The position numbers and the translations under genes were made by a program. Positions 4,007-35,660 of a stretch of DNA of 64,000 bases are shown in pieces. A model generated the notes under the pieces. It had not been told where the DNA came from. It worked only from the letters and a program-made list of their open reading frames with translations, and did no database searches. This DNA comes from Botryllus schlosseri. Taxonomy: Eukaryota. The DNA lies in NCBI GenBank assembly GCA_051294905.1, contig CM119371.1:39620001-39684000 (forward strand), written 5' to 3'. Each line of letters begins with the position of its first letter. The stretch's first letter is position 1.

Positions 4007-4769
4007 GTGTAACGAAGTTGTAAATAACAATGGGCTCTAGCTCGAAGTTAAACTACGAGAAACTAACGAATAGTCTTGTCCGCGTGGCATGATTGTTATG
4101 TAATATTTACTTTACAATTGCATGTCGCGAATTTTTGAAGTCATCACTTCCATCAGGCAAATCTGATCACGTATGGTGATATAGGGTAATATGCAGAATA
4201 TGCAAGTACAAGCACTAATATTGTTGAAAAAATCCATCCCTTTGCAAACGTTGATCAGGAAATGCAGCAACTATATGCACTTTAAGGCGTTGCGTTGGAT
4301 CAGCTTCTCAGCAGCACAAATTTGTGATTTTATTCGATTGGTTTGAACGGGTATCTTCTGTAGATAAGGTCATACGGTGATCTTGTTCTTGCTTCAATCA
4401 GACTTGAATATTCGTATCATTATATCTGACTGTATGTCTTGAAAGTAATGAGTGCGTTGCCGGTATCAAGACGTCACATCAGTGTTTTAACGCGATAGGC
4501 CTACATCGATCGCATGTATTGATTTCGGGTGCGTTCTCGTGCGTGTATGTCTGTCTTCTAGTAATCCATAGTATATCAACATACGTACATTGATTAATTG
4601 TGACGTCACACGTAGTCGCACAGCATTACGATTCGCCGTATATAGTAATTGCGGTTACATGCGTCCATTTGTGTCGCTGTAAGTGTTTTAGCTAGCTGCT
4701 TGCCGGTGGGCCAACGTTGAGTGAATACTCACTAATTCTGCTTAGCACTGTTTCTACTGACCGCTTTTA

Positions 4770-6443: not shown

Positions 6444-6740
6444 TGTAACGTACTTTTGATCGTAGCCTAGTTACGATAGTACGTTATATTTGGCTCGATT
6501 AGAGACTTGGCTGTATCAACTTAGACTGATCGAGTAGCTTGCTAACTCGATTCCAACCACTACCTAGTTTCTATGCGTCCTATTATCCGAGCCTACCCCT
6601 GAGACACGGTCAAAGTAATTCAAGCAATTACAGAAATAGGATCACAAATTTATCAAATGAAAGTCCACGTCAACTTCAAGGCAGCGGTTACAAATCGGTT
6701 AACAACAGTTAACTCTCTAGGCTAAACTTATAATCTAAAT

Positions 6741-12533: not shown

Positions 12534-14229
12534 ATCTAAATGAATAATCACAATTAAATGAATAATCACAATTATCTCAATGATGCACCAAACAATACAA
12601 TATTCGAATCCCATATACCCCTAATCTTGGCTAATTTGAATCACTGACAGAAACTTATTACCAGCACCAATCGACTAATCGGAACTCATGCACAATACGC
12701 CGTCATTTCCCGTACACAGGGAACACGAGTATAACAATGCGTCCCCTTGAGCAATAATGATTCCACATGAACAACCGTTTCTTTCATTATTTAAGCCGTT
12801 TCCATGTGCAGGTTTCGTTGGCAGAGTGACCATATATGGGCATAGCTTTCATGACTCAGCAAAATTACTCTGCCAAGTGGTTGCCCCGATCGGTCAGCGG
12901 TTGTCAGAGTAATTCACGGTCGGCAGAGTATCTTGCTCCGCTCTTCTTGGCTACGGTCGTCTGTTTACTATCGCAGTCACTGGGGCGTTTCTTGTGTATC
13001 GAGGATCAGCTAACTGCGGGAATAATTGAATTTGGACTTTACTATTGATAGACGTATTACTTTATTGTTACTTAACAAAACAGAATGATTTGAAAGCAGC
13101 CTGGAGTTGCCGGTGATGCATCAAGCGCAGCAGGATGCCATTTTTTTGGTGCAAGTGGACTGTGTTATCGAGTATAGGAAGGCGCGCCAGGAACGTCAAC
13201 TTCCATTATTGATATCCCATTCGTGGTAATTCTTCAGATTTTCTGTGTATGTGGTACCGGTATCGCGGTATGTAGGATGTATACTGTATAGCTTTTTACC
13301 AGTACTCATTTTTTATAATGCAGGTACGGTACTTCAAGGAACACCAAGAGAAGGAAATTGAAATCTGGAAGAATAATAAGGCTCTGAAAGTGATAAGCGA
13401 CGACCTCGACGAACAGCTCGAATTCTTGAAGGAGTGTGCGGAAAGACATTTGCAACAAATTGCCAGCATGTGGAATGTGGATGACGCAGCCCATGGACCG
13501 CCTTCTCGACTAGCTATCACCAATATTCTGACATCTATTTCCAATCAGAATATGTTCGAATAGATCAATGACTGATGCTTTGTTGAATTGATGGTTTCTT
13601 TTGAAACATGCAAACAGAGACGAATTTGTAGCCTATAAAATCATAGTCAGGATTGAAAGGATAGGCAGCAATGGTTCGGCGACCTTCGCTACATCGGCGG
13701 TATTTGGTAGGACGCATTAACAACAATCCTCGGCGGGATATCAACGTTGCTGATTTAAATACTGTCCTGATATTATCCATAGCTATACACTGTAGCACCC
13801 TACAGCAAAAGTTCCTTTTGGAAGATTTTCTCTGTATAGGCCTTGTTCACCACTCCGGGTATCTTGACAGAAACATCTCTAAAAGCTATAGAATTCCACA
13901 AACTATTTAGCTGGTACTTTATCGTCGATATCCTCCAACACGAACTTTTCACTACTAAGTACCGGTACCGATTGTCAATTTTTGTTCACCGACGTTTATC
14001 GGCCGCTGATCATGATCATGCACTGTACGAGTGTACGACTGTGCGTACACATGGAAACGCGGCCACCATTCCTTGGCTCAGCCAATGCGGGCTAAGCCAA
14101 GTGGTGGCCGCACATGGAAACGGCTTAAATGACTTTTTCCTTTGGCATTCTCTCGAATGTCCTACGAAAAAGTGCTGACTCAGCATATTTCTAGTAACGA
14201 GGTTTGAGTTTTTTCCGTCTACTCCCATT

Positions 14230-15170
14230 ATAGAGAATTTCGCACCCCGCCATAATGTGTCCTATTCTTGCTGTATAATATCGGCAGGTATTGGTCCTTT
14301 GCATAGTATCACTTCAGGGTTCTGTGATTGTAGCAGTATGAGCCCGCTGTTTCTGGCTTCTGCGGCATTCACGCGAAAAGCAACATTTCGCATTTTGGAT
14401 TTTTGCGTATTTGTCTTGCTCAGATGAATAAATTTCCAATGTATTCGTTCAATGCCCAATAATACGAGATGTTTTGAATTTGATTTGGTCGTCATGTGGT
14501 ACAATACGTCGTTGCCTCAGTACTCCTTATACGGGGGAGGTGTTCCTTTAGTGTGTCCGTGTGCGGTGGCCAGTCCCGCGTCCGAAACTATAGCCCTGTC
14601 GCACGGTTTCATGATGGTTTTAATTTCTTCAATACCCATCCGCATCGCCAGTTTTCTTTCGATTATTCGACAGGTCTCTTCCCAAGGGTGGTATCCGTCA
14701 ATTGAGTCATTGCAATGCTCGTGTCGACAGTGAAACATCAACGTTCGTTGTATTTTTTCTTCTCTGAGGATTGTCCGCGGATACGGAGGTTTTTCATGTT
14801 CCGAAATAAGGGCCCAAACGGGTGGATCGTCGTCCCCCGCGGTCATCTCCATCCAGTAGGATCGAGGAAATCCATCTGACGTAAATACTGCTAATGTGCT
14901 TAAGTGGACTACCTCCTTTATCTGGAATCCAAAGAGATGGTTGAGCCCTCTTTGAATAAGGAGACTTGGGCTCGGATTTTTCGCCGTGTCCGTCATCCTT
15001 TTAAGAATCTCGAACACCCCTGTGTTGTTAGTAATTATCGTAAAGGGTATGGCGCGCAGCATCGACTGCCATTTTTCCACCGAATCAGTAAAGGCTTTTA
15101 GTTATTTAGTGCATGGTTCATAGGCATTCGCCGCTAGAGTTAACAGATTTGGACTGTACTATCGAGTGCG
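14230..15170 (-). pseudogene. Gypsy-like RNase H C-terminus and integrase relic
   Basis: AYEPCTK*LKAFTDSVEKWQSMLRAIPFTIITNN resembles the RNase H motif ELLA...W..YL...FTI.TD. HPWEETCRIIERK...IKTIMKPCD resembles the integrase zinc-binding region. A decayed core follows. Confidence 0.65.
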
Positions 15171-15203
15171 ACTTGCGCTGTCTTGTAATCTTGCAATAAC
15201 TCT

Positions 15204-15470
15204 TCAGACACAAGTACTGGCGTCATTCATTTTCTGAGGAGCAACAAAAATAGCTAACTTCCATTCGACAAAACCTTGTTCGATGACGCCCAAATCCAGG
15301 AAGTTCTCTACCGCCTCTTTTAATGCTTTTGCCTGGCCCTCCCCCTTTAGATTATAAGGACCAGAAACAAAAGGCTTGGTTGAGGGATCCTTAAGCTCGA
15401 TGTCGCATGGATACTTCATAGTCTGTGGGGCGCCAAGGTGAGTAGTGTTATTATCGACCTTATAGACCGC
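15204..15470 (-). pseudogene. Gypsy-like reverse transcriptase N-terminus only
   Basis: CDIELKDPSTKPFVSGPYNL...LKEAVENFLDLGVIEQ...W..AIFVAPQK. The YxDD core is absent: only about 100 bp separate this from the RNase H relic. Confidence 0.75.
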
Positions 15471-17459
15471 CCCTCAGGCTATTTAGAATGTAAACACTCT
15501 CATAATATAATTTGCGTCGGACTATGCCCGGTTTATGATGTCATCACAGAGGAATTAGGCGACTGCAATGTTTTGTGAATTTCAATACCGATTTTCCATG
15601 TGTATTTAGCAATATGTATTGAATACCTATGCGATTTTGAGCGCTGCGACTTGATAATATCAATCCCTACGCTTCTGATGTATGATTTTTTGTGATAAGG
15701 GCCTTGATAACATTCAGAGTCTGCAACGATTGTTTGGATATACATTATAGCAATTCCCCACTAAACTATAGGCGGTTATATTACTCTATTGGTCAGAGAT
15801 AACTCATCCGTCCATATTTTTAAACTTGATTTTATGTCTACAAGTTACGGTCTCTGCAGGCTCCACATTTTACGACTTATTTTCATTAGACGCAGGCAAG
15901 CGATTCTCAAGTTCGGAGCTACGGAAACAAATCACTCGCATGTGCGCGTTCCGAAGTCGTAACAGCTGAGTAGCATATACGCGAATCCCAAGGCGAAAAT
16001 AATCGAACTAGAACAATAGCCGCAGGCGTGCGATTCGCAGGGCTTTATTTATACAAACACTTTCGATACCTGTACGCGAACCCCAGCGTCATAACGATAA
16101 GGTCTAATTAGCGCGTTCTGAAACCGTAAATTTAGTCAACATCATTGAGATAGCCCTGATTTAAAGATGATCATCGAGTGTGACGATAGCACTCGCCAAG
16201 GTTATACTATCTTAACCTTAAACTACTCTCTACTTCACAAAATATAAAGTTATAAAAGTAAATAATCCAGTGATCTATTTTCAATCACTATATTTTTCAT
16301 TAATCAAAACTAAGAACTGTTAGTAGGCAAACCCTAGGAAAGTATCCTCTGATAAAAGCAGGAGTAATTTGTTATCCGTGAAATAAATAGATGGTGCGCA
16401 ATATGAGCGGTGCTGCGATGACTGACAAATACTTTGAATTAACGTATAGAAGTAGCGATTTCGAACTACGTAAAAAGTTAGTCCAGCTCACGCATCTTCA
16501 TTTTCAAAAGTCAAAACACGACGTTTTTTGTAAAATGAATACTAATTTTATTAAAAATAGGAAAAAAAGAGCAAAAAATTACATTTTATCCCCGAACGCA
16601 ACAAGAAAAATCGTATGAATTTGTAAACGACTTATTCATGACATAATATTAATTCTACTTGTACACTTTTTCACATTTTATAACACTTTTAGTAGTACTT
16701 AACAGTTTCAGTTTTAAATAAAATTCAGAATATAAACTAATCGAAAAATTCGGTAACCAATTTCGCGTAGGCTATGCATACAAATGAGGAACGTTACATC
16801 AACGCGTGTTAACTAGTTGTATTATGTAGCTTGTAATTCATGCAAGTAAGTCGGACAAATTCGTCGCATGAACACGACTCTAATGGACATAAAGAAATGA
16901 AAATTTTGTAAAGTAGATATTTTCGGTATGCTAAATTCGTCTACGCGGTGCTAGTCTTCTTGACCGCATGAAATAGGATGTTTTAGCTTCAACCTCAACG
17001 CATTAGCACACCGAATTTAAATATAGGCGATAAATAATATACAGTAGCTCCAAATTTAATGAAAAAATAAAAATGCGCGAAAAATTGCATTTATCCTGGA
17101 ACGCACCAAGAAAAACCGTATGAATTTGTAAAGTAGTTAGAAAACACGCAAAAAGTCGGTATTGCTTTGTGATGGTTTTGATGTTGTTCCATACCGATTT
17201 GGAAGATAGTACACTTAATTACGTAACTAACTACTTCTATTAAACTTCTATACTGAATCTTGTAAAGTATAATGAAAAGTGAAACTAATCGAAAAATTCA
17301 CCTCGCTTCAATTTCGATGTACAAAAAAAAACCACAAACTAAGTTTGCTTTCAGAGTCGGAAATTAAATGCATAAAAAAAATTTAAGTAGGTTTTCCTCA
17401 CACGCAACAAATATACTCAAGTGTTTAATTGAATCCCAACTCGAAACTTGATACGTAGT

Positions 17460-18070
17460 TGTAGGACATTATGGCAATGCACCATGCTAAATTTCATCAC
17501 ACATCTAATTATGGAACACCTTTAAAACTAACGCAGTCGAATGCCGACTTTACGCATATCTGTTTTGCATAAACATAGCATATACCTATACATAGTCAAT
17601 TTTAATAACAGAATTAGCATGCTAAACTTACGCAGTTGTAAGACATTATGACAATGTACTATGTCAAATTTTGTTACGCATTTCATGATTGAACAACTTG
17701 AAAACTCGCGGTTGTAGGACATTATGAAAATACACCATACCAAACTTCGTCAGACATTTCCTGATGTAAAACCTTTAAAACTAACGCAGTTCGCTACAGA
17801 CTTTTGCGTAAATCTGTTTTTCGGTAGCGCAGCACGTACCTATGCATAGTCAACAGTAAAACGGAATTACCATGTTAATAATCGACTCCCCACCTTGAAA
17901 CTCGGTACACAGTTGTAAGACATTACGGCAATGTACCATGTCAAATTTTGTTACGCATTTCATGATTGAACAACTTAAAACTAACGCAGTTCTATACCGA
18001 CATCCGCGTGAATCTGTTTTGCGGGAGCGTAGCACATACTTATGCGTAGTCAACTTTAATGATGGAATTA
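17460..18070. repeat. Diverged copies of a ~200-bp tandem repeat
   Basis: Recurring GACATTATG.CAATG.ACCAT...AAATTT and TTTAAAACTAACGCAGT motifs; same family as 20530-21625. Confidence 0.8.
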
Positions 18071-19058
18071 CAGATGAAATTAAGTTTCAACACTTTTACA
18101 ACGATTCTTCTTGCTTCCTATAACATTCCACTCGAAGCCCTCGTTATTAGGCTATGATCTAAGCCTGAGCTATGTCTTGAAGCCTACGGGACTCTGTTAT
18201 TCGTAAATAGCTACTTCTACCTTAATTTAATGGATTTATCTGAGATCATTGCTTTACTTAATCCCTCCAAAATGTGCATTATACCAGTACGTCACCATCG
18301 AAGGACCTCTGGCTATAACTATCTAGCAGTATAATTGCAGCAAATACTCGGGTACTAATTTTAAAGTAGCTTAGGTATCTAAATGAGCTCTGAGTCGCTG
18401 TTATCTCGCATCTGACCATGGAGTTAACACCGCTATTACCTTTGCTCACTGATGAAAAAGATGAAAGTTATTAAAGAAAGCAGATTTGTATGAAAACTCG
18501 TTAAATAGAAGTAAAAGTAGCCTAGAAACATAACTACTTACTGAAAAATCGTTACGTAGAAGTGGGGTTAGTCTACGAACATAACCACTTACTTACTTTG
18601 AAATCTCAACTTGTACTTGTATTCGTACTTTACCTTTACACGTCGTTTTTGTATAATGGATACTAATTTTATTAAAAATAAACAAAAAGCGCGAAAAATT
18701 ACATTTTATCCCGGAACGTAGCAAGAAAAAGCGTATAAATTTTGTAAAGTAGATAGAAAACTACACTATTCCGATGCACTGAAGACTCTTACACTCTGGA
18801 TTTTGTGCAGTATATACTAATTTTACATTGCGGAGTATTCCATAAACGTTAATCCAGTGATCCTTCTTCTATTTTCAATCACGATCCGCTTATTATTCTA
18901 GGCTTCGAAGCCCACACCCAGTACGTTTTATGAGGATTAATATTTTTAGATTAAATATAGCGTATCGAGACTTCGTGAAAGTTACTTGGAAATAGTTATT
19001 TCTACCCTAATTTAATAGATTTCTCAGATATCGTAGCAACGGAACTGGGTTGAGGGGG

Positions 19059-19100
19059 GCGGTTAAGGCGTTGGACTTAAGTTTCAATGAACAAGTGTTC
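19059..19100 (+). pseudogene. tRNA-Leu(TAA) fragment (D arm to variable arm)
   Basis: GCGGTTAAGGCGTTGGACTTAAGTTTCAATGAACAAGTGTTC resembles the metazoan tRNA-Leu(UAA) core. Confidence 0.75.
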
Positions 19101-19265
19101 TAAATTACTCATGTTTTCAACATAAACTAAACGCAAAGTGCACGAATTTCCATATTGATCAAATACCACAAACTTTGCTTGCTTTCAGAGTTAGTAACTA
19201 AGCGCGTAACAGAATTTACCTAAAAAATGTCAGTACTCCGAAAATTTTGTAAAGTATAGCTTTTT

Positions 19266-19326
19266 GGCGTTGGACTTAAGTTCCAATGAACAAGTGTTCG
19301 CGTAGGTTCGAATCCCACACCCACTA
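19266..19326 (+). pseudogene. 5'-truncated tRNA-Leu(TAA)
   Basis: Anticodon stem TTGGA-CTTAAGT-TCCAA, variable arm GAACA-AG-TGTTC, B-box GGTTCGAATCC, followed by TTTT. Acceptor 5' strand and D arm are missing. Confidence 0.85.
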
Positions 19327-20529
19327 CGTTTTACGAGAATTAATATTTTTAGATTCAAATTTAGCGTATTGAGTACTTTTTCTGCCTTTTTCAGCGCATT
19401 AGAGACGTTTACACTATGGATTTCGTGAGCTTTACTTGAGTTTTATAAATTAACGTAAAAGTAGTCATTTCAGAGTAAGTAAAACGTTCGTATTGTAGGT
19501 TCATTTCTGCTTAATACTATAATTATCATGGAGTTGAAGCAGCCCAATATCAAAAACACTCGAAAGTATTTGTTGCATATAGCTAAAAACCTAATTGAGT
19601 ACTCTGAAGAAGTACAAGTAGCACAGTTTGTGGTATTTGTATGACATCGAAATTTAGCTAACCAGAACTTATACTTGAGTACTCCGAAATGTACAAGTAC
19701 TTTACCTTTACACGACGTTTCCGTAAAATGAATACTAATTTTATTAAAAAATAAAAAAGCACGAAAAATTACATTTTATCCCAAACCATCAGAATACTAA
19801 AGTATAGCTTCTCGCGTATATGTACCTAATACTAAAGTGTTTAAGATTTCAGTTTGCTTCAACTTCATGACATTTTCAGTATTAAACAGAAGTATAGACC
19901 TAGAATGCTAACTTTCTTCGTAAATAGCTACTCCTGCCCTAATTTAACGGATTTATCTGAGATCATTGCTTTACTTAATCTCTCCAAAATGTGCATTATG
20001 CAAGTACGTCACCATCGAATCCCTCTGGCTATAACTATCTGGTAGTATAATTGTGGCAAATACTCGAGTACTAATTTTAAAGTAGCTTAGGTATCTAAAT
20101 GAGCTCCGAGTCGCTGTTATCTCGCATCGAGCCATGGAGTTAACACCGGTATCACCTTCGCTCACTGATGAAAAAGATGAAATTATACTCAAGTATAGGT
20201 TTTGCTTTGGTATCACAGAATACTAAAGTAGCTTATTGCGTATATGTACCTAATACTAAAGTGTTTATCATTTCAGATCGCTTCAACTTCATGACATTTT
20301 CAGTATTACACAGAAGTATAGACCTAGAATGCTAACTTTCTTCGTAAATAGCTACTTCTAGCTTAATTTATTGGATTTTATCTTAGATCATTGCTTTACT
20401 TAATCTCTCCAAAATATGCATTATACAAGTACGTCACCATCGAATCCCTCAGGCTATAACTATCTGGCAGTATAATTGCTGCAAATACTCGAGTACTAAT
20501 TTTAAAGTAGCTTAGGTATCTAAATGATC

Positions 20530-21625
20530 TCTAGGACATTGTGATTATGCAGCATACAAAATTTCATCACACATTTCATGATGGAACACCTTTAAAACTA
20601 ACGCAGTCGAATACCGACTTTTACGCATATCTGTTTTGCGTGAACATAGCATATACCTATATACATAGTCAATTTTAATAGCAGAATTACCGTGTTAAAC
20701 ATTGAATTCCCACCTTGAAAGTTGGTACGCGGTTATAGGACATTATAACAATGCACCATACCAAATCCAATCACACATTTCATGATGGAACAACTTTAAA
20801 GCTAACGCGGCTCTACATCGACTTTTTGCGTACATCTGTTTTGCGGGAGCGTATAGCACGTACCCATACATAGCCAACTTTAATAACGGAATTACCATGC
20901 TTAACATTGAATCCCAACTCGAAACTTGATACGTAGTTGTAGTACATTATGGCAATGCACCATGCTAAATTTCATCACATATCTAATGGTGGAACACCTT
21001 TGAAACTATCGCAGTCGAATACCGACTTTTACGCATATCTGTTTTTCGTTAACATAGCATACCCATAGTCAATTTTAATAACAGAATTAGCATGCTAAAC
21101 ATTAAATTCTCACCTTGAACGTTGGTACGCAGTTGTAGGACATAATAACAATGCACCATACCAAATGTCGTCAGACATTTCATGATGTAACACCTTTAAA
21201 ACCAACGCAGTTCTATACAGACTTTTGGCTAAATCTGTTTTTCCGTAGCGTAGCACGTACCTATACATAGTCAACTTTAATAACGGAATTACCATGTTAA
21301 TAATCGACTCCCCATTTTGAAACTCGGTACGCAGTTGTAAGACATTATGACAATGCACCATGTCAAATTTTGTTACGCATTCCATGATTCAACAACTTTA
21401 AAACTAACGCAGTTCCATACCGACTTTTGCGGGAGCGTAGCACGTACCTATGCATACTCAACTTTAATAATGGAATTACCGAGCTAAACATTGAATGCGC
21501 AACTTGAAGATTGGTTCACAGGTATAGGACATTATGACAATGGAACATATCAAATTTTATCACACATTTCATGATGGAACACCTTTAAAACTAACGCAGT
21601 TCTATACCAACTTCGCGTGAATCTG
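20530..21625. repeat. ~200-bp satellite-like tandem array (about 5.5 units), possibly Helentron/HINE core repeats
   Basis: Unit starts near 20532, 20737, 20940, 21137, 21338 and 21525. Confidence 0.85.
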
Positions 21626-21630
21626 TTTGT

Positions 21631-21763
21631 GGGTATTCATTGAGTTGTATAAGCATAAAAAACATTCCCGCGCGCTCCTAAACCTAACACTTCCTACCCT
21701 ACCACCTAATACTAAGACGCGCGCGGGAATGTTTTTTATGCTTATACAACTCAATGAATACCC
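21631..21763. mobile_element. Small foldback element with telomere-like CCTAA loop
   Basis: ~45-bp inverted arms GGGTATTCATTGAGTTG...CAACTCAATGAATACCC around a CCTAAACCTAAC...CCTACC loop. Paralog at 23664-23788. Confidence 0.85.
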
Positions 21764-22033
21764 ATCGGCCTGCTTACTACATTTTAAAGATTCTCTCCAC
21801 TATCGTGTATACAAGAATATACTTGTAACATGATAAGTATATTATAATTAATCTTATCAGCGCGGCATAGTACATTCGAGTAAATTCATTTAATTAGCTT
21901 ATGTTTATGAAATTATTTGGTTTCCGAATTCTATCTAAAACTGAAACTGACGAGTATCGGTAAAAGCAGTCTTAAACCGTAGTCACTTATTACGTGGAGG
22001 GAGTCGATAGCGAAGTACTCGTGCATTTTGTAG

Positions 22034-22653
22034 TACTCAAGTATAGGTTTTATCTGCTTTCGAACTGTCCTAAACGCAGTCTCCAAACGTCTCCGCTATA
22101 GCGATGTCGAAGTCAATGAAAAATATAAAGAATATTTACCCGATGAGCGAATGTTCCTGATGATAGCTGATGAAATTTGCAAAGATACCAAAGAAAATTG
22201 GGGCAGGATTGTGACCCTTTTTGTGTTCGGTAGCATTCTTGCTCGCAAGAACGAGGATGAACATCATGGGGAGCATATAGAAGCTATCATACAGACAGTC
22301 GGAAATTACATTGCTAGCAGAAGACTGAAGTGGATAGTGCGAAATGGAGGATGGGTGGGTGATTTACATGCTTTGCTTAGGATTTATAAATTATCTTTTA
22401 GCATGAGATATATAGTGTATCCGCTCCCTCGGAGCCCATATCATCTCTCGATGATGAAACTCAGCTTTACCTTCCAATTCGGTTCCCGATACGATAACTT
22501 TCATCCGTATGATCATTAAGGCTTCTATTTTTGTTGTAGGATGGCTTTGTAGAATTCTTTGATAATACCGCTTTCGACTACAATAAAGTTTGGAAGGGAC
22601 TCGTGTTTGTCGGGATCGGACTGACATCTATTGCAATGGCATTATCAAGATAA
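22034..22653 (+). CDS. Bcl-2 family (Mcl-1-like) gene, two exons: 22034-22354 and 22540-22653; 5' end unresolved
   Basis: BH3-like KRLRYSDVEVNEKY, BH1 NWGRIVTLFVFG, and BH2 WIVRNGGW|DGFVEFF split by a 185-bp GT-AG phase-0 intron. C-terminal anchor GLVFVGIGLTSIAMALSR*; AATAAA at 22692. Confidence 0.88.
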
Positions 22654-24798
22654 CGGATGTTCGCGTGTTTTGTCTCATGTAATATTTTAAGAATAAAATT
22701 CTTCATCGTTTAATCGCATCCATTTTACTGTAGGACCTATACAGTTTCTTCTGAGAATACTCGAAGGATTGCACCCATATGGAAACCTTCTTTATACTTT
22801 TAATTTTTCTAATTTCTACAGCTACGTAAGGAAATTGTTAGGATTACCCAGAATACATTGCAGGTCAAATTTGATTCGATTACGAGCATTATAGCGACAG
22901 AGATTTACGATAGTGTAAAATGACCTACCTTACGATATCAAATTTCGTCTTCTCTCCAAGTGGAAATATCATGTTATATAATATTGTCCATACCGAACAA
23001 ATATAAATTTGCCCGTGCTGTTGCTTTGCAAGAATACTTCGCTCACATAGTAACCAATTTCTGGTGTATCCCGAATCGATATAGACAGAAGTGCGGAAAG
23101 TTACATTGACATGTCTTAACTTCTGCCATAGATGTTGCGTTTCTAACTACTTAAAAGTTGCTAGAGCTCACGCTGTTTTATCGTCGTATTGACGTTCGTT
23201 TTGAAAAGTATAGCATGCTCAATGGTTAATGTTCACATTATTCAGTTAATTAGGTTTTGCGCAAAGAAAAATAAAATTCACGCAAAAGTCGCTATTGCTC
23301 CGCGATGATTTTGATGTTGTTCCATACCGATTTAGGAGGTAGTACACTTTGTATTAACTTCTGCCATAGAAGTTGCGTTTCTGGCTACTTAAAAGTTGCT
23401 AGAGCTCACGCTGTTTTATCGTCGTATTGACGTTCGTTTTGAAAAGTATAGCATGCTCAATGGTTCATGTTCACATTATTCAGTTTAATTAGGTTTTGCG
23501 CAAAGAAAAATAAAATTCACGCAAAAGTCGCTATTGCTCCGCGATGATTTTGATGTTGTTCCATACCGATTTGGGAGGTAGTACACTTAATTTCGTAAAG
23601 TACGCATATTCGCGGCGTGTTCAATTAACTCATGTGGCTCTAAAATGTAGTAAGCAGGGTGATGGGTATTCGTTGAGTTGAATAACCATAAAAAATATTC
23701 CCGCGCCCTCCTAAACCCAACTATTCCTAACCCCTACAACCTAGGGCGCGGGAATATTTTTTATGGTTATTCAACTCAACGAATACCCATCACCCTGCTT
23801 ACTACATTTTAGAGCCACATGAGTTAATTGAACACGCCGCGAATATGCGTACTTTACGAAATTAAGTGTACTACCTCCCAAATCGGTATGGAACAACATC
23901 AAAATCATCGCGGAGCAATAGCGACTTTTGCGTGAATTTTATTTTTCTTTGCGCAAAACCTAATTAAACTGAATAATGTGAACATGAACCATTGAGCATG
24001 CTATACTTTTCAAAACGAACGTCAATACGACGATAAAACAGCGTGAGCTCTAGCAACTTTTAAGTAGCCAGAAACGCAACTTCTATGGCAGAAGTTAATA
24101 CAAAGTGTACTACCTCCCAAATCGGTATGGAACAACATCAAAATCATCGCGGAGCAATAGCGACTTTTGCGTGAATTTTATTTTTCTTTGCGCAAAACCT
24201 AATTAACTGAATAATGTGAACATTAACCATTGAGCATGCTATACTTTTCAAAACGAACGTCAATACGACGATAAAACAGCGTGAGCTCTAGCAACTTTTA
24301 AGTAGTTAGAAACGCAACATCTATGGCAGAAGTTAAGACATGTCAATGTAACTTTCCGCACTTCTGTCTATATCGATTCGGGATCCACCAGAAATTGGTT
24401 ACTATGTGAGCGAAGTATTCTTGCAAAGCAACAGCACGGGCAAATTTATATTTGTTCGGTATGGACAATATTATATAACATGATATTTCCACTTGGAGAG
24501 AAGACGAAATTTGATATCGTAAGGTAGGTCATTTTACACTATCGTAAATCTCTGTCGCTATAATGCTCGTAATCGAATCAAATTTGACCTGCAATGTATT
24601 CTGGGTAATCCTAACAATTTCCTTACGTAGCTGTAGAAATTAGAAAAATTAAAAGTATAAAGAAGGTTTCCATATGGGTGCAATCCTTCGAGTATTCTCA
24701 GAAGAAACTGTATAGGTCCTACAGTAAAATGGATGCGATTAAACGATGAAGAATTTTATTCTTAAAATATTACATGAGACAAAACACGCGAACATCCG

Positions 24799-25418
24799 TT
24801 ATCTTGATAATGCCATTGCAATAGATGTCAGTCCGATCCCGACAAACACGAGTCCCTTCCAAACTTTATTGTAGTCGAAAGCGGTATTATCAAAGAATTC
24901 TACAAAGCCATCCTACAACAAAAATAGAAGCCTTAATGATCATACGGATGAAAGTTATCGTATCGGGAACCGAATTGGAAGGTAAAGCTGAGTTTCATCA
25001 TCGAGAGATGATATGGGCTCCGAGGGAGCGGATACACTATATATCTCATGCTAAAAGATAATTTATAAATCCTAAGCAAAGCATGTAAATCACCCACCCA
25101 TCCTCCATTTCGCACTATCCACTTCAGTCTTCTGCTAGCAATGTAATTTCCGACTGTCTGTATGATAGCTTCTATATGCTCCTCATGATGTTCATCCTCG
25201 TTCTTGCGAGCAAGAATGCTACCGAACACAAAAAGGGTCACAATCCTGCCCCAATTTTCTTTGGTATCTTTGCAAATTTCATCAGCTATCATCAGGAACA
25301 TTCGCTCATCGGGTAAATATTCTTTATATTTTTCATTGACTTCGACATCGCTATAGCGGAGACGTTTGGAGACTGCGTTTAGGACAGTTCGAAAGCAGAT
25401 AAAACCTATACTTGAGTA
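24799..25418 (-). CDS. Second, mirror-image copy of the Mcl-1/Bcl-2-like gene (exons 25418-25098 and 24912-24799)
   Basis: Reverse complement of 22034-22653, with one amino-acid difference (HHEEH vs HHGEH). Confidence 0.88.
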
Positions 25419-25846
25419 CTACAAAATGCACGAGTACTTCGCTATCGACTCCCTCCACGTAATAAGTGACTACGGTTTAAGACTGCTTTTACCGATACTC
25501 GTCAGTTTCAGTTTTAGATAGAATTCGGAAACCAAATAATTTCATAAACATAAGCTAATTAAATGAATTTACTCGAATGTACTATGCCGCGCTGATAAGA
25601 TTAATTATAATATACTTATCATGTTACAAACGGTGATGATGTGGCAATGGATGATGTGGCACTATAGGCGTGGCACTTGATGATGTTGCGCAGGTGATGT
25701 GGCAATGGGCGTCATATAGGTGCAGCAATGGGCGGATGATGTGGCAAGGGGTGTCCCATAGGTGCGGCAATGGGCGGATGATGTGGCAATGTAGGCGTGG
25801 CAATTAAGGCGACGTGGCCTTCTGTAATTGGCGGGGCACAATTTGA

Positions 25847-26695
25847 TCAACCCTCACTACTAAGGTGGCCCCGTAGGTCTTCGAGTTCCGACGCAAAAGG
25901 CATGTAGACGGCTTTCCAGACATCATCAGGAATAATGGTGTTTTCTGGAGTCGTCAAGTCAGGAGGTTTGTACGGGAGTTTAGCCAGCGCTACTGCTTGT
26001 GCACACAGGTTATCGAGTTCCGTCTTTACGTTCGGATTGGTGTCTTTTTGTAGAATGTATGTGGTAACTGGGCCAGCCATGGGATGACACGACTTTCGTG
26101 ATGTTCGGGGTTTTGGTGTAGGTGGAGAGAGGGCGAGGTCCTTCGTTGTCAGCGGGGATTCCCTACCTATCCAATCTGACCTCTGAGCTCGGTGCGCGCC
26201 CGCACTTACCGTCACGCCGACGGACTCAATCTCCGCCGGGGGCCCTGATTCTGGGGAGACGTGCATCCTAAAATCCCCAGACTCCTCGTCGGTCATATCC
26301 AGACACGTGTCTGGTTGAACGACAATAGCTGCTTCGTTAATACCTTTTGGGAAAGTAGTTAAAACAGGTGCTGTCGTAATGCTACTATGGGCCGAACAGT
26401 TACATTTGTCCGGACAAGTGCATCTACGAGAGCTTTCTGGACCAACTCTCTCGCGTGGGTCCTCATTTGCGCCAGCGGGGATTCCACACTCGACGTCTTC
26501 AAGAATAGTGCCAGCAGGGATTCCTGACTCGACACTTGGAATTTCCCATAGGTTTTGTGTGACGTTAGTTGCGCTTTTCAACTCGTCGTTCGCGCCAGTG
26601 GTGATTACCATCTCGACACTTGCGCCAGCGGCGACGGCTGGCAACGATGGCCAGCGCGCCGATTCGACGCTTATCTGATTTGCAGCTTCCATCAA
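25847..26695 (-). pseudogene. Low-complexity linker ORF downstream of the protease in the Gypsy-like polyprotein
   Basis: 282-codon open frame rich in Pro/Thr/Ser/Ala, collinear with the protease relic; no recognised domain. Confidence 0.5.
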
Positions 26696-26773
26696 CCCAT
26701 CGTCGGTCGCAGTTTTGCAAAGACTGCTTCCGACTTTGGTTCCATCCCGTTGATCACACGAGATATCGTCGCA

Positions 26774-27085
26774 TCAAGTTAATAAAGACAACTCTTCATT
26801 TGCGTTAGACGGAGTTTTGAACTCAGTTGCTATGTTTGGTAATTGCTGTACTTGATCAATCCATTTCAATCCCACAATATTGAGTGGGACTCCTTTTCCG
26901 ATCGCAAATGGAACCGACAGACCGTCAAAATCAATCACTACCAAGGAATCAACGGGGGATGAGCCACCTATACCACGCAATTTCATGTCTAAGGGTTGGC
27001 GCTCATCCCAAATTCGTGGGTATTTAGTATTCGTGACATTTTTCATTATCAAATTGGGGATGCTTCCCGTATCAGCCAGGAATTT
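26774..27085 (-). pseudogene. Retropepsin (aspartic protease) relic
   Basis: TKFLADTGSIPNLI...LRGIGGS...NIVGLKWI: DTG active site, GIGG flap and ILG-like motif. Confidence 0.85.
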
Positions 27086-27601
27086 TGTACTAGTTTTTTA
27101 TCAAATAAATACAAGAGTTGGCCGCCGAACAGTTCCGTAAAATCCGGCTGCAAATGGTCATCCGGTGTATCAAGAAACGTAAATAGGGGTAGGGAATCAT
27201 TATGTACAGTTTTTGTGTGTTGGGGTAGTATATTATCTGGGAACTGATTTACCGGATCAATCAGCACCCCGAAGCGATTTTTGAGAGTCGAATACCTTGA
27301 TTCAGTTCATCATCCGTCCAATATAAAGCGTCATATCGACGTGGACGATTATGATATTGAGGTTCCGTCCAGGCCACCTGGCTATTACCCCGGGTTGGGT
27401 GTGCAGACGGTCCTTGAGGACCCCATTGATCCCTATCATGCCAGTGGGTTCTATCTTGATTTTGTGGCCTAGTATCATAATAGGTTACACACAAAGCTGT
27501 CCCTTGTGTAAATGAGGTGGGAAGATATTGGTCAAGCCCGTCCAATTGTTAGTATGTTATTTCTTGTAAAGAAAGGTTTCCAATTACGTCCTGCTGATTC
27601 T

Positions 27602-28569
27602 TTAACATTTGAGGGCACTGGACGTGCTCGCTACGTACTTTCCCCCCAGGGCAAGAACCTGATTGTTTAGCCAAAGTATTAATTTAGCCACACAACTACG
27701 GGACTGGTGTCCCGGGGCCTTACAGTAATAACACACCGAGAGTGACTGGCCTTGAGAGGGATTCAAATACAAGCCTAAAGGTGCGAAAATATTAGGGTTT
27801 CCAAGAAAATTGTACCTTTCACCTTGGCTCTCCGCAATGTTGCGGGCTTCCCGGCTGCTAGATGGAGTAATCTGTGATCCGTCCCCACCCACCACGGAGT
27901 CCTGCGTATCTGCCATTCGAGGGCTTCGGTTCGAGTTTCCCGGTCCCTGGCTAAAACGCGGAGGCCCCGTAGTTCTTGTCGATTGCACCTCAGGTCTCGT
28001 CGGTGCGGTACGCCCAGTCTGGGGTCGTACTAGTATAGGCCTCGGGCCCTGTCCTCGCCTACCAGGTCCATTCCCATTCATGACGTTGGTAGGAGGTCAT
28101 GACGTTGGTAGGTTCGAGCTATACGAGAAGGATCGCGGCGTAGTGGTGGAGCCTGGCCTGCGTTGACAAGTTGACGCGGTGAGATCTTTCTAAGCGGCCC
28201 AGGAGGTGTTGCTCTCCCAAAGGAGGCAGTGATCGAAGTGTTCGTCTTCAGACTCTCCCCCGTCCACTGAAATTGCCAGGAAATGACACACCGCACCGGA
28301 AGTCCGTCAGTTGGTGCCTCCATTTGTTTATAGTGTAGCTTCATGGCGCTTGTCATGCAAGTATAGTCTACACTTGGTTCGATTTTCTTCACAGTGCTGA
28401 AGCCCATCTCCTGGCTTTTCCACAATCTTCGACATGCACAGCCAGAACTTGACGACGTTGATTGAAGCATTGGCTGCAGCTTGATCGAACGAAGCAGTGA
28501 CCTTGAAGGTCCAGAGGCCTCAAGACTAGTCATAACATAGCCAAAGCTTAATACAACCAAATACTCCAA
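27602..28569 (-). pseudogene. Gag relic with CCHC zinc knuckle
   Basis: CYYCKAPGHQSRSC (CX2CX4HX4C) after an Arg/Pro/Gly-rich segment; frameshifted ORFs; upstream of the protease. Confidence 0.8.
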
Positions 28570-31069
28570 TAATTATCAACCAATTATGGACACAAAATAG
28601 GGTGCTTCTATAAACATCGTCCCGTACGGGTCTATCCGAATACGAATAAAAGCTAGGCCTATAAATATGTCATGCATGATTGATAACTTTTCAATACTCC
28701 AAGGTTAGTTTACACATATAAATGTGAAGGCCTTTCCTGCCTCAAAACACAAGCACATATAATATTCAAGAAACATGCCAATAGATGCCACAAAAAAGAA
28801 CACTCAGCGTTCAAGTTGACCAATTTGCAGACCATCGTATTTTATAAGAGTTTCCCAGTCTTCCAGCTGTAGCTATCGAACCGAAGTCAATCCAGAAACC
28901 GACCCCTTGTTTGAGTACTTTACATCTTATGATCATCAAGTACTTTTCGTGTCGATTCGGGAATCAGGCGCTCCAACAGAACACGGGGTTTGTTGAGGGT
29001 TCGTCGTAGGTAGAGATTCCAAATGCAATATCTCTACGCCCTTGGCTCTTCTCGTCTTCAGTTCATCGGCTTCATGGAGCTATTGCAGCATATTTCATTG
29101 GGCTTCTCCATTTCTGTATTCTTTGCAACTTCGGCTAGCAGTCGATCCTATTTTATCGCACTGCTTTAGTTCTGTATACGTTGCAACTGTGGCAAGCAGC
29201 CGATCCAATCATTATAAGGCTAAGAGCTTCCAGGGGGACATGTGAACATCACCCTTCAACGCCAAAAGACTTCAGAACATCCCGCAATAAATCGTCAATG
29301 TCCTGTTTTGTGGATATAGTCTGATAATGAATGCTTCGTTTTGGGCCGTGTTTCGAGAGTGCTAGTGGCTTTACACTGGTAGAGCCACAAATTTGCCAAA
29401 ACTAGAGGACACATTCATTCTGTCTACATAAGTAGCCATTGGATATTACAACTGGATGTACAATTCATGTGGGCACCATACATGGCATGGATATGCAATA
29501 GGCATACATACATATATCATATATACTTCAGCTCACTGCGAAAGTTCGCATACATGAAGAAATGGTGGCGCCATTTTCGGTAAAACAACCTGATGGTATA
29601 GCTAACTACTGACATACATACGACAATTCCAGATAAGCACAAAGTGCTGTCAACACAACGGCCAAATCCACAAAGCATATTCGACTGTTCATTCATTAAC
29701 CCATGCGCAAATTCGAAATACAAAATGGCGGCATTTTTGTTAACTCAGCACGATAGTGAGTATCGGCAATAGAGTTCGAACACATTCTGCAAATTTAGCG
29801 TTGACGCAATCGATCTCATGAAACGAAAGCGTGAACCCTTGGACTCAATTTTCGACACATCAATTTCGCAAAAATTGATGTGTGTACTTTTCTGTTGTAT
29901 ATAAGAATTTTTACTTTTATTTTATTGAGAGTTATTTAGGGTCATTATATCTGTTGCTTACGCAACAGCAATTCATCTTACTAAATGCTCTTTTATGTGC
30001 AGCCTATTTTTTAGGTACTAGTCTTGTTCATAATCTCACACTAAAATACCTTACCTTAACAATTTGGAGGGGCAGTGTAGGCATTCTCTGAAATATAAGA
30101 TTTGCAGTGCCTGGGTCAGAGCTTAAATCCACGACCTTTTACGGTGTTTAGCTGCAATCCATGAAGTGCGGATTTATGCATTTGAAAACGAGTGACACTG
30201 CGATTCGCCTATGGAAAGGCACGAACTAACACTGGCGTTTCTACGCTACGACGTGAAATTCATCACAATATAAGCTCAGTAATACATGGTAGCACAAAAT
30301 GGACACATTTGTGTGACACAATATTCAACGAATGGCCTCGGCGCTCGGCGAGCACTTGGACACATTACGATTATCGCAATACAGACCAACTGCTCGGCTG
30401 CATTGCCATCCAGTTTAGAATTGTATTAACCTTCACCGAAATAGTATAGCCTAGAGCGGCGACGGGGTTCAGATATAGGTTTGAATATATTTTCAGTTCG
30501 AGTCGCCATTTCGGCTTTGTCCTTGCGACAAGCTGCCTCATTTCTGAAGCTAATATTTTGGATTAGTGCGTTTCGTTTCACTGAAGCTAATTTAATTGTC
30601 CTTACAAGCACTATACATGAATGATTTTAAATAAAGGCACTACTATGGAATATCTAGGTATCAACATATCACGCGCAACTCATGCAACGCAACGCAGATA
30701 TAGCAACAGGCACGTACTCATTTATGCTCAGTGATGCCATTTATTTACTTTACGCTGCTATGAGCTATTTCTCGACCCTATTAATTGTTTTCAATTATAA
30801 CGCATTCATGCTAACATGATGAAAGCTAGTAGCTGTTGACAAAATCAGATTTTTTGTAATACTAGGGCGAGATAAAGACAGGCCAAAATGAACGCGAAAG
30901 TCTGTTATAGCGACTATTGCTTGTGTGAACGTAACACACAATATTAACACAATTCAGATATTGCGAGTTATCGTCGCGAAGAGCGCTCGCTCATTGCAAT
31001 ATATTTGTTACCGACTGGTTGACACAATCCCAGCAAACACTAGATGTCTTTTGAACCTGTCAGGATATC

Positions 31070-31750
31070 TTTTTCTTGTCCAGCCAGGTTCAAATCATAT
31101 CTTGTGCATGCTTTGTGCTGAAGCACGACTTAAATATATCTTTTTCATGTCCAGTCATGTTCAAATCATATCTTTGTGCAAACCTTGTGCTGAAGCACGA
31201 CTTAAATATATCTTGTTCTTGTCCAGTCAAGTCCAAATCGTATCTTGTTCATACCTTGTGCTGAAGCACGAATTAAATATATTTTTTTCTTGTCCAGTCA
31301 AGTCCAAATCATATCTCGTCCATACCTTGTGCTGAAGCACAACACAAATATATCTTGTTCTTGTCCTGTCAAGTCCAAATCATGTCTTGTCCATACATTG
31401 TGCTGAAGCACGACTTAAATATATCTTGTTCTTGTCCAGTCGAGTCCAAATCGTATCTTGTTCATACCTTGTGCTGAAGCACGAATTAAATATATCTTGT
31501 TCTTGTCCTGTCAAGTCCAAATCATGTCTTGTCCATACATTGTGCTGAAGCACGACTTAAATATATCTTGTTCTTGTCCAGTCGAGTCCAAATCGTATCT
31601 TGTTCATACCTTGTGCTGAAGCACGAATCAATTTTTTTTTGTCCAGTCAAGTCCAAATCATATCTTGTCCATACCTTGTGCTGAAGCACGACACAAATAT
31701 ATCTTGTTCTTGTCCAGTCAAGTCCAAATCATGTCTTGTCCATACCCTGT
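31070..31750. repeat. 71-bp subterminal tandem repeat, about 9.5 copies
   Basis: TGTGCTGAAGCACGA recurs at 31114, 31186, 31257, 31328 and onward. Confidence 0.95.
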
Positions 31751-32978
31751 GATGGCCTCCGCTGCTTTCGGTGGTTGATGGGTATTATAGAGTGTATAAT
31801 TGGAATTGGTCGGCTCCGAAATTTTGGAAGGCAATTTGAAAGTCAGCAAAATCCGGCTGGAGAATTTCCGGTTCTGCGTCCCAAAAACTTCTACCAAAAT
31901 CATGATATCGTATTTAAGATTATAATTAAGAATGTTGCTAAAATCCAACTGTCGAAATAAATTCAGAATCCGCATCCAGTCCGGCTGAAATCGCTGAAAT
32001 CCTGCTACGACTCCGGCTTCTGATCCGGAGTGTAAACGAGAGGCCGTTTCTCCCTTGCGAGTTCACATAAGTTTTGGCGCGGAATACTGGCAGACAAAGC
32101 GCTCTCGTAATGGCGGCTTACAGCTATACAGTCGTATGTTAGGTTTAGTTGCGTTCTGGAATTAATCGTGGTAAATTGAGGCTCAACCAACCATATTCCT
32201 TCAGAGGATTACTGAAAACTTAACTGTAGATGGTAATTTATATATGCTTCATACGAAACATAGGTATATGATGTATGGTATAAATGTCACAAAGTATATA
32301 TAGAACTTGGTTTGCACTTTTGCGAATATCATAAGCTATTGTGACAGTGCTGGATTATATATAATATCATCAGATGGTGGTCGTTGAAATCATTCATTGT
32401 GATCGAATGTTTTTGTACTTTTGTCTATAATAGTGTAGTGGGGGCTCATGAATTCAATAACGAGATTAATTAGGCCACAGAGTTGAACGCCTTATGAAAT
32501 CTTAATTAGGGATTGCACCGTGTGTTGATTGATCAGGGAGAAAAAACATGGCGGCGCCTGCATGACAATGTTATTTTCAAATTCACATTGTCCTCAGCAT
32601 TATCGGTGGGAAATGGATTTGAAGTGACATTGCTGTCGTTGTAATACATTCATTAAATACGATTTATTCATTGTATATGTGGATAAATGGGCGAATAATG
32701 TATCGATTCAGCAATCCGGCCTATATCCGGCCCGCCGACTGGAGAAGTTGCCCACCCCTGATCTAACCTCTCGTCAAGATCAACGTTCCATCAAGTTATT
32801 TGATGTCTATGCAGGCGCGTAGCCAGAGGGGGGGTTTCGAGGGTATAGTCGTCATTTACGCATGTACTTAACCATAATGAATTGATGCTATATTAGTGAA
32901 TTCGAAAAATATCGAAACCCTGCCATATTATTTTAAAAAACCCTACTTATTTTTTGCCATTTGTATTTTGTACTACAG

Positions 32979-35008
32979 GTATCTGCTTTGAAAGGACTTC
33001 ACGGTGAACAATTGGCCTCAACGGTCAGAAATATCATGACAAGCATAGCTGTAAAAGATGTGTGGCAATTGTTCAGCCTAAAAGGTCAAAGAAGCAAAAA
33101 TGGACAAAAAAGAAGTTTTCAAAATTTTACTCTTTACAAGACTATAAAACGTAAGTTGTTACTGATATTACAATCGCGATTTCAAAACCCATGATAACGA
33201 TGTCTTCGAGAGCATTTTTACAGAGTTAGGGTATTTTGCTTTCCCTTCTTGTGAAAGATCATCGCAGCTAAATTGCAAATCGTTGCTGACCACACACCCT
33301 TATAAGCCCTCGTTTGAAGTCATCTTCTACTGACATTGCCGACATGGCGAAATCACAAGCAAGTGCGTTGATTGCGCAACTCCATGTTGAGTCTGGAATG
33401 TTTTGAAATACCAATTTTGACACCATGGGGTGATCACATTCGAGAGAGATTGTTACCGCTGGCGGAGATTCCGATTTGCCGCATTGTTTTGTAATGCCGC
33501 CCCTGATCTACTTATATTCTCTTTGAAGGAGCATGTAAAGTGGCTCATCCTACGGCCGACAGTACAACAATTACAACTAAAGTGGGACGATTTCTAACTG
33601 TTATTGGAGCTTGCAAGGTAATTTTGTTTATGAATCTGACGTCTGTGTGACAGCTGCGTTCTTTATCCGTAAGTGAATCGTTGCTACCTCCAGGGCCACT
33701 ACCATTCATCTTCAGAACACTATACCAGTGGTTTCCAAACTTTGACGTGATGTAATTTAAAAAAAATTATAGTTATTTAATTTCTCGGATTATCCTTGAT
33801 TGGTGGATAATCCGCGATTTATCAACGAAAAACTCACATAAACCCGCTTCTACTGGTCGGAATTGACTCAAATTTGTTTTGCAACGTCTTTGAAGACAGC
33901 TCAACAATTTCATGGGGTTGGCAGGAAAATTGGGAAATTTTTTTTTTAATTTTCAATAATAAATTAAAAATTTTAATTGGATCTGCGGAGTCCTATACTT
34001 GTTAGAATCGAACCAAATTTGGTGTGCAGCGTTTTTAGGGTAACCTGACAATTAAATCAGTGAATGGCTGGAATCCGAGGAAAAAAGTTATTTTTGAACA
34101 GCCCTACTGCACACGTGAGCAATTACGCAGTGCTTAGTTGGTCTCAGCGCAGAAAAAGCGCAGAAAAAATCTGAAGTGATGTCATTTTTTTAGTCGTTAC
34201 GTACTACTGTCGAAGGGACCGCGCAGTGAGTTGGTGAGTGTGTGCAGACTCTTCAAAAATTAGAGGGAACATTGGGCCGGCTGTTTCGGTGGCGAACAAG
34301 ATGCATGGCAAATATGGCTCAATTCCAACGTGTAGAAGTCAAATCATTGAGATACAAAATTAGGGATTGGAAACTTCGCTGGTATATATATTAGGTACAT
34401 TTTACAGCTAGCTATACTATCCCATTCACCAAAGAAATGTTTGAAGCTGGCCCAGAACGATAACGATGAGTTATACGATCTTCCAGGGCCGTAACTGTCA
34501 CACTCCAAACACCCAATTAGGATAGCTCGACTGGACCCAAAATTACTTTGTTGGTCGTTTGTTGAAGTAGATGTAATCAAATTGAATATTTTTGTCGTGC
34601 TTAGCGCGATTTCTTGTCCCTGTAGGTCTACATTTAAATATGATTAGTAAGATAAAAAGGTGCTTATGTTAGAGAAATATGCAAATCGGTGGTGGCGATT
34701 ACCACACATTGAAAAGGACTACGACTCTACTCTGTGCTAAGAGATGGGCCTCAAGAACATTTTCAAACAACACACACCACCAAGGTCGTCGTGACTTCCT
34801 AAAGGCGATTCGGAATCCTTGGATGAATGTGACTTGCCATGACCGTCCCATTGTACTCGCAACCAAACACATATAATGACTTTTGCTCTACTGCTAATCA
34901 ATCGAAGTAATCAATTCATTTATGTTTTAGGATGACGATAAAGGAGAAAACAGGAGCAAGACTGTTATCGAGGAGGCTGAAGATTCCGATACCGATAACA
35001 TAGACTAA
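32979..35008 (+). pseudogene. Spliced DUF4806-like accessory gene fragment (exons 32979-33150, 33529-33617, 34931-35008)
   Basis: Phase-compatible GT-AG introns give VSALKGLHGEQLASTVRNIMTS...FSLKG...KRSF...LYKTIK|RACKVAHPTADSTTITTKVGRFL...|DDDKGE...NID*. No upstream exon found. Confidence 0.65.
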
Positions 35009-35460
35009 TGCTAATGCAGAAATATTTGCTGAAGTGATTGCACAGTTCTGTATCAAGGCCCAATTCTTGCTAACGTATTTTCTTCATCCATGTTTTTTTT
35101 GGCGTGTTTTGTTCTGATTTCATACAGAACAGAAAGCCATAAACATGATTTTTAAAATTGGCGATTAGTTTTAATTCTGAATCAAGGCCTACCTCTTGCT
35201 GCCTACTTCTTGCTAACGTATGTTGTGTCACGGACTGTTATTTTACCTTGATTCTTCATCTATTTTTATTCCAATTTTCCGTCGAGGTCTAGTCCAGTTC
35301 ATTTTTTTTTTTGAACTGGTATAATACAGAACAAAAAGCCATACATGATTTGTAAATCTGGCGATTCGTATTCGTTCATATGTGAAGTCCAGCAAATAGC
35401 AGGTTTAGCCAACCAGGGTTCAGGGTCACACAGGGTCGAGTTATACAAAAAATCTCTTCT

Positions 35461-35660
35461 AGGATATGTTTAAGGATGTTAGTCAGGATATCTTTGAGGA
35501 TGTTTATCAGGATATCTTTGAGGATGTTTCTCAGGATATCTTTGAGGATGTTTATCAGGATATCTTTGAGGATGTCCATCAGAATGTCTTTGAGGATGTT
35601 TATCAGGATATCTTTGAGGATGTCCATCAGAATGTCTTTGAGGATGTCCTACAGGACATC
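35461..35660. repeat. 24-bp (12-bp dimer) subterminal tandem repeat
   Basis: (AGGATATCTTTGAGGATGTTTATC)n. Confidence 0.95.

Follow-up and report, generated by a model that had tools for sequence, protein, structure and literature searches.

Homologs of Bcl-2 occur in adintoviruses and Polinton/Maverick elements of animals, which are virus-like integrating DNA elements with polymerase, integrase and capsid genes (PMC8502044); in the listed part of one supplement file of that study, the names Styela, Ciona, Phallusia and Botryll- do not appear. Another described case is vNr-13 of the herpesvirus of turkeys, a Bcl-2 homolog of host origin whose two exons are separated by a single intron (PMC7199394). 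Among the open-access papers listed in our searches, there was no description of a gene-poor, palindromic family of elements that carries a Bcl-2 homolog. Here, we describe a locus in a 64-kb stretch of the Botryllus schlosseri genome (the window, whose positions are counted from its first letter), where two copies of a spliced Bcl-2-like gene lie in mirror image. Judged from its sequence, we consider this locus to be, quite probably, a damaged and non-functional remnant of a palindromic, multi-copy mobile element with an Mcl-1-like gene as its cargo.

The left copy, on the forward strand, comprises a 5'-truncated large exon (22061..22354) that runs from just after BH3 into the first half of BH2 and holds the BH1 motif NWGR, a 185-nt GT-AG intron that splits BH2 (22355..22539), and a last exon (22540..22653) with the second half of BH2, a predicted membrane anchor and the stop codon. 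It is followed by a poly(A) signal, with AATAAA at 22692, and an approximate cleavage site (22692..22713). On the reverse strand, the right copy mirrors this arrangement, with a 5'-truncated large exon at 25098..25391, an intron at 24913..25097 (joint in the RNA reads 24911-25097, CT..AC, cut +1) and a last exon at 24799..24912. Searched against PF00452, the open reading frame (ORF) at 22034-22516 gave an E-value of 4.7e-18 and 66 bits, above the curated cut-off of 31.4, with the match restricted to model positions 30-100 of 100; membership in the Bcl-2 family, as proposed in the first-pass annotation of this DNA, is thereby confirmed. The 185-nt intron starts directly 3' of the TGG codon in the GGW of BH2, where nearly all animal bcl-2 homologs are described as having one (PMC7527217), and the window copy combines this intron with the BH1 (NWGR) and BH2 motifs that mark the family. 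Its last exon encodes DGFVEFF and a hydrophobic tail, which is 51% identical to residues 204-240 of bcl-2-like protein 2 of Styela clava (XP_039252627) and which, from this alignment, is predicted to be a C-terminal membrane anchor. The intron, the tail alignment, and the AATAAA together with poly(T)-bearing RNA reads all agree with the earlier proposal of a GT-AG intron within BH2, a C-terminal exon and a poly(A) signal, and the retained intron supports the origin at the DNA rather than the RNA level that had been suggested alongside it. The reading frame is open from 22061 to the stop, the splice sites and the poly(A) signal are intact, and in-frame ATGs at 22151 and 22160 would give products of 105 and 102 aa; the intact frame and these two ATGs are observations that speak against non-function. 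An AlphaFold model of the unspliced ORF, built on a 12-row alignment, had a mean pLDDT of 65, with 84-88 for the core helices and 47-64 for the first 30 residues, and was uninformative for the reading of the locus.

Sequence comparison indicates that the gene is cut inside its large exon at 22061, just after BH3, so that BH4/alpha1 and BH3/alpha2 are removed. Two public proteins, P0152 (93% over 100 aa) and P0154 (82% over 98 aa), match the exon from base 22061 and extend upstream in one open frame through the stretch TLRRVGDE, which in P0152 aligns with the same motif in Mcl-1 structures when compared with PDB sequences. We take this stretch to be BH3/alpha2, with the helix labels borrowed from what is known of Mcl-1. 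The window copy starts immediately downstream of this stretch, at a point equivalent to residue 105 of the 241-aa Styela clava protein, which itself covers PF00452 model positions 1-100 completely. The gene had been described as lacking its first exon; instead, the break lies inside the large exon, across which (at 22061) P0152 and P0154 are continuous. In the listed ORF, positions 22034-22060 belong to repeat DNA and not to the gene, and 22013-22049 matches module DNA at 19666-19702, which shows module DNA joined to mid-exon, identically in both arms. In the set X15, two contigs diverge from the window at the mirror of this cut: one follows it to 25391 (mirror of 22061) with 26 differences over 222 nt, the other to 25392 (mirror of 22060) with 2 over 119 nt, and beyond these points they carry 89 and 88 nt, respectively, of other sequence.

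The part of the gene upstream of 22061 was untraced in the 64-kb window, where tblastn gave only poor matches elsewhere (best E 0.028-0.11), and BH3/alpha2 and BH4/alpha1 are absent both from the window copy and from the whole window. A gene that is simply interrupted, its 5' part lying close by, was rejected on this search of the 64 kb. Nor is there support for an upstream exon that would join at the AG of 22033, given that 22034-22060 is module DNA and that P0152 and P0154 show no break there. The BH3-binding groove of Bcl-2 proteins is made of alpha2-alpha5 and alpha8 (PMC8998228); since alpha1 and alpha2 are missing, the truncated product would be without a complete groove. By this reasoning from sequence, the window copy would not work as a normal survival protein, and it is likely a pseudogene.

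The two gene copies probably do not stem from an ordinary gene duplication but represent the paired arms of a single mirror-image unit. The surviving palindrome consists of a left arm (21823..23709, forward strand) and a right arm (23743..25629, reverse strand), each of 1887 nt, separated by a 33-nt spacer. Aligned with each other, the arms are 99.84% identical, with three substitutions (22269/25183, 23067/24385 and 23334/24118) and no indels, and only the pair 22269/25183 changes a residue. The inverted duplication with a one-residue difference that had been reported is thus borne out, with 3 of 1887 nt differing and one difference nonsynonymous. Of the limits given to it, 22034..25418, the inverted pair is real, but the palindrome extends about 210 nt further on each side, ending sharply at 21823 and at 25629, where the right arm stops abruptly against retroelement DNA (25629/25630). 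At 23334, the letter of the left arm is found neither in the right arm nor in the left arm's own tandem partner. The identical 5' cut in the two arms, together with their three differences in 1887 nt, favors a palindromic carrier.

At the centre of the palindrome lies a discrete and very stable hairpin unit of about 175 nt (23638..23814) with a 33-nt C-rich loop. A second copy of this unit, located 1.85 kb from the central one at 21630..21789, is 82% identical to it, lacks its left end, and has 46-nt perfect arms in which changes are mirrored on both sides. The presence of this copy at 21630 is as expected of a small element that moves freely, and in that respect it speaks against a palindromic carrier.

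For the gene segment 22061-23111, the window offers no further match, and its surroundings are made of related modules. Hits within 16.2-25.6 kb cover 71% of 16235-21629, 24% of 21790-22060 and 93% of 23112-23637, whereas hits from outside that interval cover 0% of these flanks. AT-rich modular repeat DNA of the arm-flank family occupies 16235..21629, includes a 204-nt array at 20532-21613 and holds no ORF longer than 101 aa; we infer that it is the unpaired rest of the carrier. Two tandem modules of 238/239 nt (23112..23588, forward strand), mirrored at 23864-24340, are related to 17145-17226. As a whole, the modular AT-rich unit with its hairpin centre spans about 9.4 kb (16235-25629). That the gene occurs in many variants, and that its flanks of module DNA are related to 16235-21629 but to no other part of the window, are further observations in favor of a palindromic carrier. 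As to the Polinton/Maverick core genes (polymerase, integrase, capsid and ATPase), 15300-22060 contains no ORF longer than 101 aa except the Bcl-2 ORF. Elements of this class carry (AGT)2 or (AG)3 motifs at both termini (PMC8097293). No outward-facing motif of this kind was found at the limits of the unit, an observation that tells against a palindromic carrier; a single 3'-type motif at 16222-16234 faces the other way, and it was rejected as the left end of the unit because it is wrongly oriented, single and found after the fact. The ends of the element were presumably lost. A 6-bp target-site duplication is a further mark of this class; the right limit of the unit looks like a rearrangement junction.

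In raw RNA reads aligned to the right copy, the 185-nt BH2 intron is skipped exactly by two reads in run X24 and four in run X22, with two start places per run; about 6% of X24 and about 3% of X22 was read, and both runs probably come from other individuals. The check for RNA reads across the BH2 intron that the first-pass annotation had called for therefore came out positive, with six reads in two runs, though from other copies of the gene. Three X22 reads have a loose poly(T) end at 24739, the mirror of 22713, which puts the tail 16 nt past AATAAA. The region 24350-26400 collected 137 raw reads (72 from X24 and 65 from X22), some of them on its repeat or retroelement parts. By identity to the stretch, one of these reached at least 99%, 41 fell at 95-99%, 57 at 90-95% and 38 lower. 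At position 24838, the letter differs from that of the window copy in 11/11 X24 and 21/21 X22 reads, at 25226 it differs in 16/16 X24 reads, and the X22 reads divide into two 3'-UTR types (10 and 4 of 14). Matching contigs numbered 152 in X15 and 80 in X17; we guess both sets to be RNA, and since they cover the intron and flanks, they were used for sequence variants and not for expression. One X15 contig has an intron shorter by 127 nt, in agreement with the short intron that the end of P0152 suggests, and three distinct related proteins are present in public assemblies.

Together, the differing reads, contigs and UTR types indicate that the gene exists in several versions and that the observed transcripts come from other copies. 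The window copy itself is likely silent, as seen in reads from 3-6% of runs that are probably of other individuals and whose differences may be alleles. Among the 40 of 130 difference rows listed, the large exon shows ten differences, of which six are silent and four change an amino acid, a set too small and too selected for a dN/dS ratio. Searches for relatives in other collections gave no confirmed members: a scan of JGI metagenomes with P0152 produced 364 pattern matches, none of them confirmed; a scan of viral contigs produced seven, again with none confirmed; the hairpin pattern had no match in the JGI metagenomes; and a search for longer proteins returned 25 candidates, none of which was scored.

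The affinity to Mcl-1 that had been read from the BH2 sequence is supported, in that all 40 of 40 PDB sequences matching P0152 at E <= 1e-9 are Mcl-1; the truncated exon alone has BCL2-like 10 as its best PDB match. In an IQ-TREE reconstruction of 46 rows chosen out of 138, the window copy, P0001, P0152 and P0154 grouped at 100/99 on a stem of 0.53, inside a seven-row clade with the Styela protein (99/97) that was sister to coelacanth and Denticeps Mcl-1 at 96/88. FastTree, run on the 138 rows, placed the same clade beside a group containing Bcl-2-named proteins (0.805). Within these relatives, P0001 has one derived residue in common with the window copy and an internal-Met start, and it groups with the window copy at 93/58. 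A published tree treats Bcl-B, Mcl-1 and Bfl-1 as a single, less supported clade (PMC10959488). As far as these sequences go, "Mcl-1-like" is a fair label for the gene; orthology to Mcl-1 is a further matter, on which the trees disagree.

The unit lies among the remains of retroelements. To its right, on the reverse strand, a broken LTR-type retroelement (25630..28572) holds a gag zinc knuckle (zf-CCHC, E 2.3e-4), a protease-like motif recognized by sight and a long linker ending in a minisatellite; the frame of the protease and linker has no Pfam match. To its left, also on the reverse strand, a broken remnant at 14301..15473 contains an RT-start-like part recognized by sight and an RNase H-like part (RT_RNaseH E 0.017, below the cut-off), with most of the RT missing. 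The two remnants share their strand and follow the order gag-protease-RT-RNase H, which fits one element, and 6.3 kb of other DNA lies between the RT/RNase H-like remnant (from 15473) and the left arm. Relatives of the retroelement continue beyond the minisatellite in sequence that is absent from the window, and a 509-nt X17 contig matches 25470-25628 before passing into 350 nt of other sequence. Because this contig and the retroelement relatives both continue in other sequence, 25629/25630 resembles a deletion scar, and from the sequence it looks as though DNA of both partners was removed there; none among the 16 of 237 contig and read pieces listed bridges it. The gene had been placed inside the pol region of the retroelement. 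By position this stands, with remnants flanking the unit, but a linkage to that gene is not supported, given the scar-like junction and a search that found no LTR pair (28300-36000 and 6000-15500 being without similarity).

On these grounds, we propose that the Mcl-1-like gene of the host would have entered an ancestor of the carrier as genomic DNA, together with its intron. The carrier would copy itself by way of its central hairpin, so that both arms derive from one strand, with changes mirrored between them. In the lineage of the window copy, module DNA may then have been joined to mid-exon, with the loss of BH4/alpha1 and BH3/alpha2 and with the cut mirrored; the unit would subsequently have come to lie among LTR-retroelement remains, where a deletion may have taken away the greater part of the right arm along with some retroelement DNA, and probably both ends as well, and the three substitutions between the arms would have arisen afterwards. 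A more specific version holds that a gene-poor, mirror-image satellite of Polinton/Maverick elements captured the host Mcl-1-like gene as DNA and spread it in a tunicate-type genome, its intact members being spliced, polyadenylated and selected for the survival of the carrier cell; we offer this tentatively, at rather less than even likelihood. Under it, the window locus could be a decay product that exposes the mechanism through a single cut mirrored into both arms, a suggestion we hold with the same reserve. An extreme form of this idea, in which the version without BH4 and BH3, common to the window copy and P0001, would be a subfamily of its own that spreads and encodes a core-plus-anchor protein, seems to us very improbable. 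The alternatives posed at the outset, a captured fragment or a transposon-borne anti-apoptotic gene, divide between locus and family: for the window copy, the captured-fragment reading is supported, and the transposon-borne reading probably fits not this copy but the family, of which intact, spliced and polyadenylated relatives exist.

Several other histories could be imagined for the locus. A stray DNA-level fragment of a host paralog might have landed in repeats, where a one-off fold-back at a small hairpin element mirrored 1.9 kb that was then rejoined into the retroelement, with no family of elements behind it. The discrete hairpin unit of about 175 nt at the centre, its second copy 1.85 kb away, the sharp palindrome ends at 21823 and 25629 and the want of any element ends would all suit such an accident, which is nevertheless unlikely in view of the many variant copies and the single family of modules that runs across 16235-25629. 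An error of assembly, by which a read folded back at the central hairpin turned one real truncated copy into a mirror image, would draw on the great stability of that hairpin, the 99.84% identity of the arms and the unbridged junction at 25629/25630 (none of the 16/237 pieces listed); set against three clean substitutions without indels, and a letter at 23334 that sets the left arm apart from the right arm and from its own tandem partner alike, we give it little credence.

The preferred reading, a decayed palindromic carrier, also has to be weighed against uses of the gene as it stands. The truncated form might serve as a 105-aa protein from the ATG at 22151, extending from alpha4 to the membrane anchor, or the right copy might be expressed as a chimeric transcript with the retroelement. 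An open frame, intact splice sites and a poly(A) signal would permit this, as would the right copy's place on the strand of the retroelement and downstream of it; P0001 offers a parallel in its shared derived residue, internal Met start and 93/58 grouping. Only 1 of the 137 raw RNA reads is at least 99% like the stretch, however, no read carries the window copy's own letter at three diagnostic places, no joint from retroelement to gene is among those listed, and the groove helices alpha1 and alpha2 are missing, all of which make such use distinctly improbable. It is hardly credible that the gene is cargo in the pol region of the LTR retrotransposon: retroelement remains do flank the unit on one strand and in gag-protease-RT-RNase H order, but passage through RNA would hardly leave a sense, spliceable intron and a 3.8-kb palindrome in place, the search for an LTR pair found none, and the relatives that continue past the minisatellite in sequence absent here have loose ends that suggest insert-free copies.

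The window copy, as a probable pseudogene, is of little consequence in itself, and the interest lies with the family. What the locus contributes is proof from raw reads of the splicing of the family's intron, support from trees for an affinity to Mcl-1, and a mirrored internal cut; tallying such copies as genes would inflate the Bcl-2 gene number of Botryllus schlosseri. The closest named protein, Styela clava bcl-2-like protein 2, is 50.8% identical over 130 aa of the spliced model and shares BH1, BH2 and the C-terminal tail with the window copy, which differs from it in sitting on a long branch (0.53) and within a palindrome of repeat DNA. Compared with vertebrate Mcl-1, the window copy is missing BH4 and BH3. 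Unlike the adintoviruses, the unit has no ORF longer than 101 aa in 15300-22060 besides the Bcl-2 ORF, is built as a mirror image, and carries a gene that keeps its host intron. The likeness to vNr-13 is that it, too, is present in two opposite copies, in that case because the gene lies in inverted repeats; yet vNr-13 is complete (BH4, BH3, BH1, BH2 and TM) and belongs to an autonomous virus, whereas the window copy is truncated and chromosomal (PMC7199394). If the proposed origin is true, the known capture of Bcl-2 by viruses would extend to a dependent satellite, a palindromic, non-autonomous element by which a spliced apoptosis regulator is spread in a chordate genome, and its family would test whether selfish DNA gains by protecting the cells that carry it.

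Among the relatives of the Mcl-1-like gene carried in both palindrome arms, the unnamed protein P0001 comes from a contig of 4016 nt. It has a single derived residue in common with the window copy and, unlike P0152 and P0154, the longer relatives running upstream through BH3, is called from an internal Met. Other individuals may thus carry damaged copies of the subtype represented by the window copy and P0001.

A minus-strand stretch weakly resembling the Tpt1/KptA RNA 2'-phosphotransferase family (14301-14517) directly follows the RNase H remnant of the broken LTR-type retroelement. Its match to PF01885 is weak (E 1.3e-4; 22.5 bits, under the cut-off of 26), and the stretch may be an additional domain of this retroelement's family; a literature search combining Tpt1, KptA and retrotransposon returned nothing evidently related among the matches listed.

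Several further repeats were recovered in the window. At 6754-10829 a 1162-nt unit occurs four times in tandem, with 99-100% identity among the copies, and a second inverted repeat, at 1830-4008, has 612-nt arms, reported as 100% complementary, separated by 955 nt. A 498-nt hairpin element (56167-56664; arms of 233 nt, 95% complementary), with a distant relative at 47835-48187, is unrelated to the hairpin at the centre of the Bcl-2 palindrome.

Two ORFs lie at 4761-6470 and 50812-52521: one matches zf-C17orf113 and, weakly, DUF4371, and is hAT-like; the reverse transcriptase ORF of the pair encodes 569 aa (RVT_1, E 2.1e-34). A Maverick-like 3' end motif at 16222-16234, oriented away from the Bcl-2 unit, coincides with a step in GC from 0.43 to 0.31; the segment 15480-16234 has no second match anywhere within the 64-kb window, and the motif may mark where a distinct Polinton-type remnant terminates on its right-hand side.
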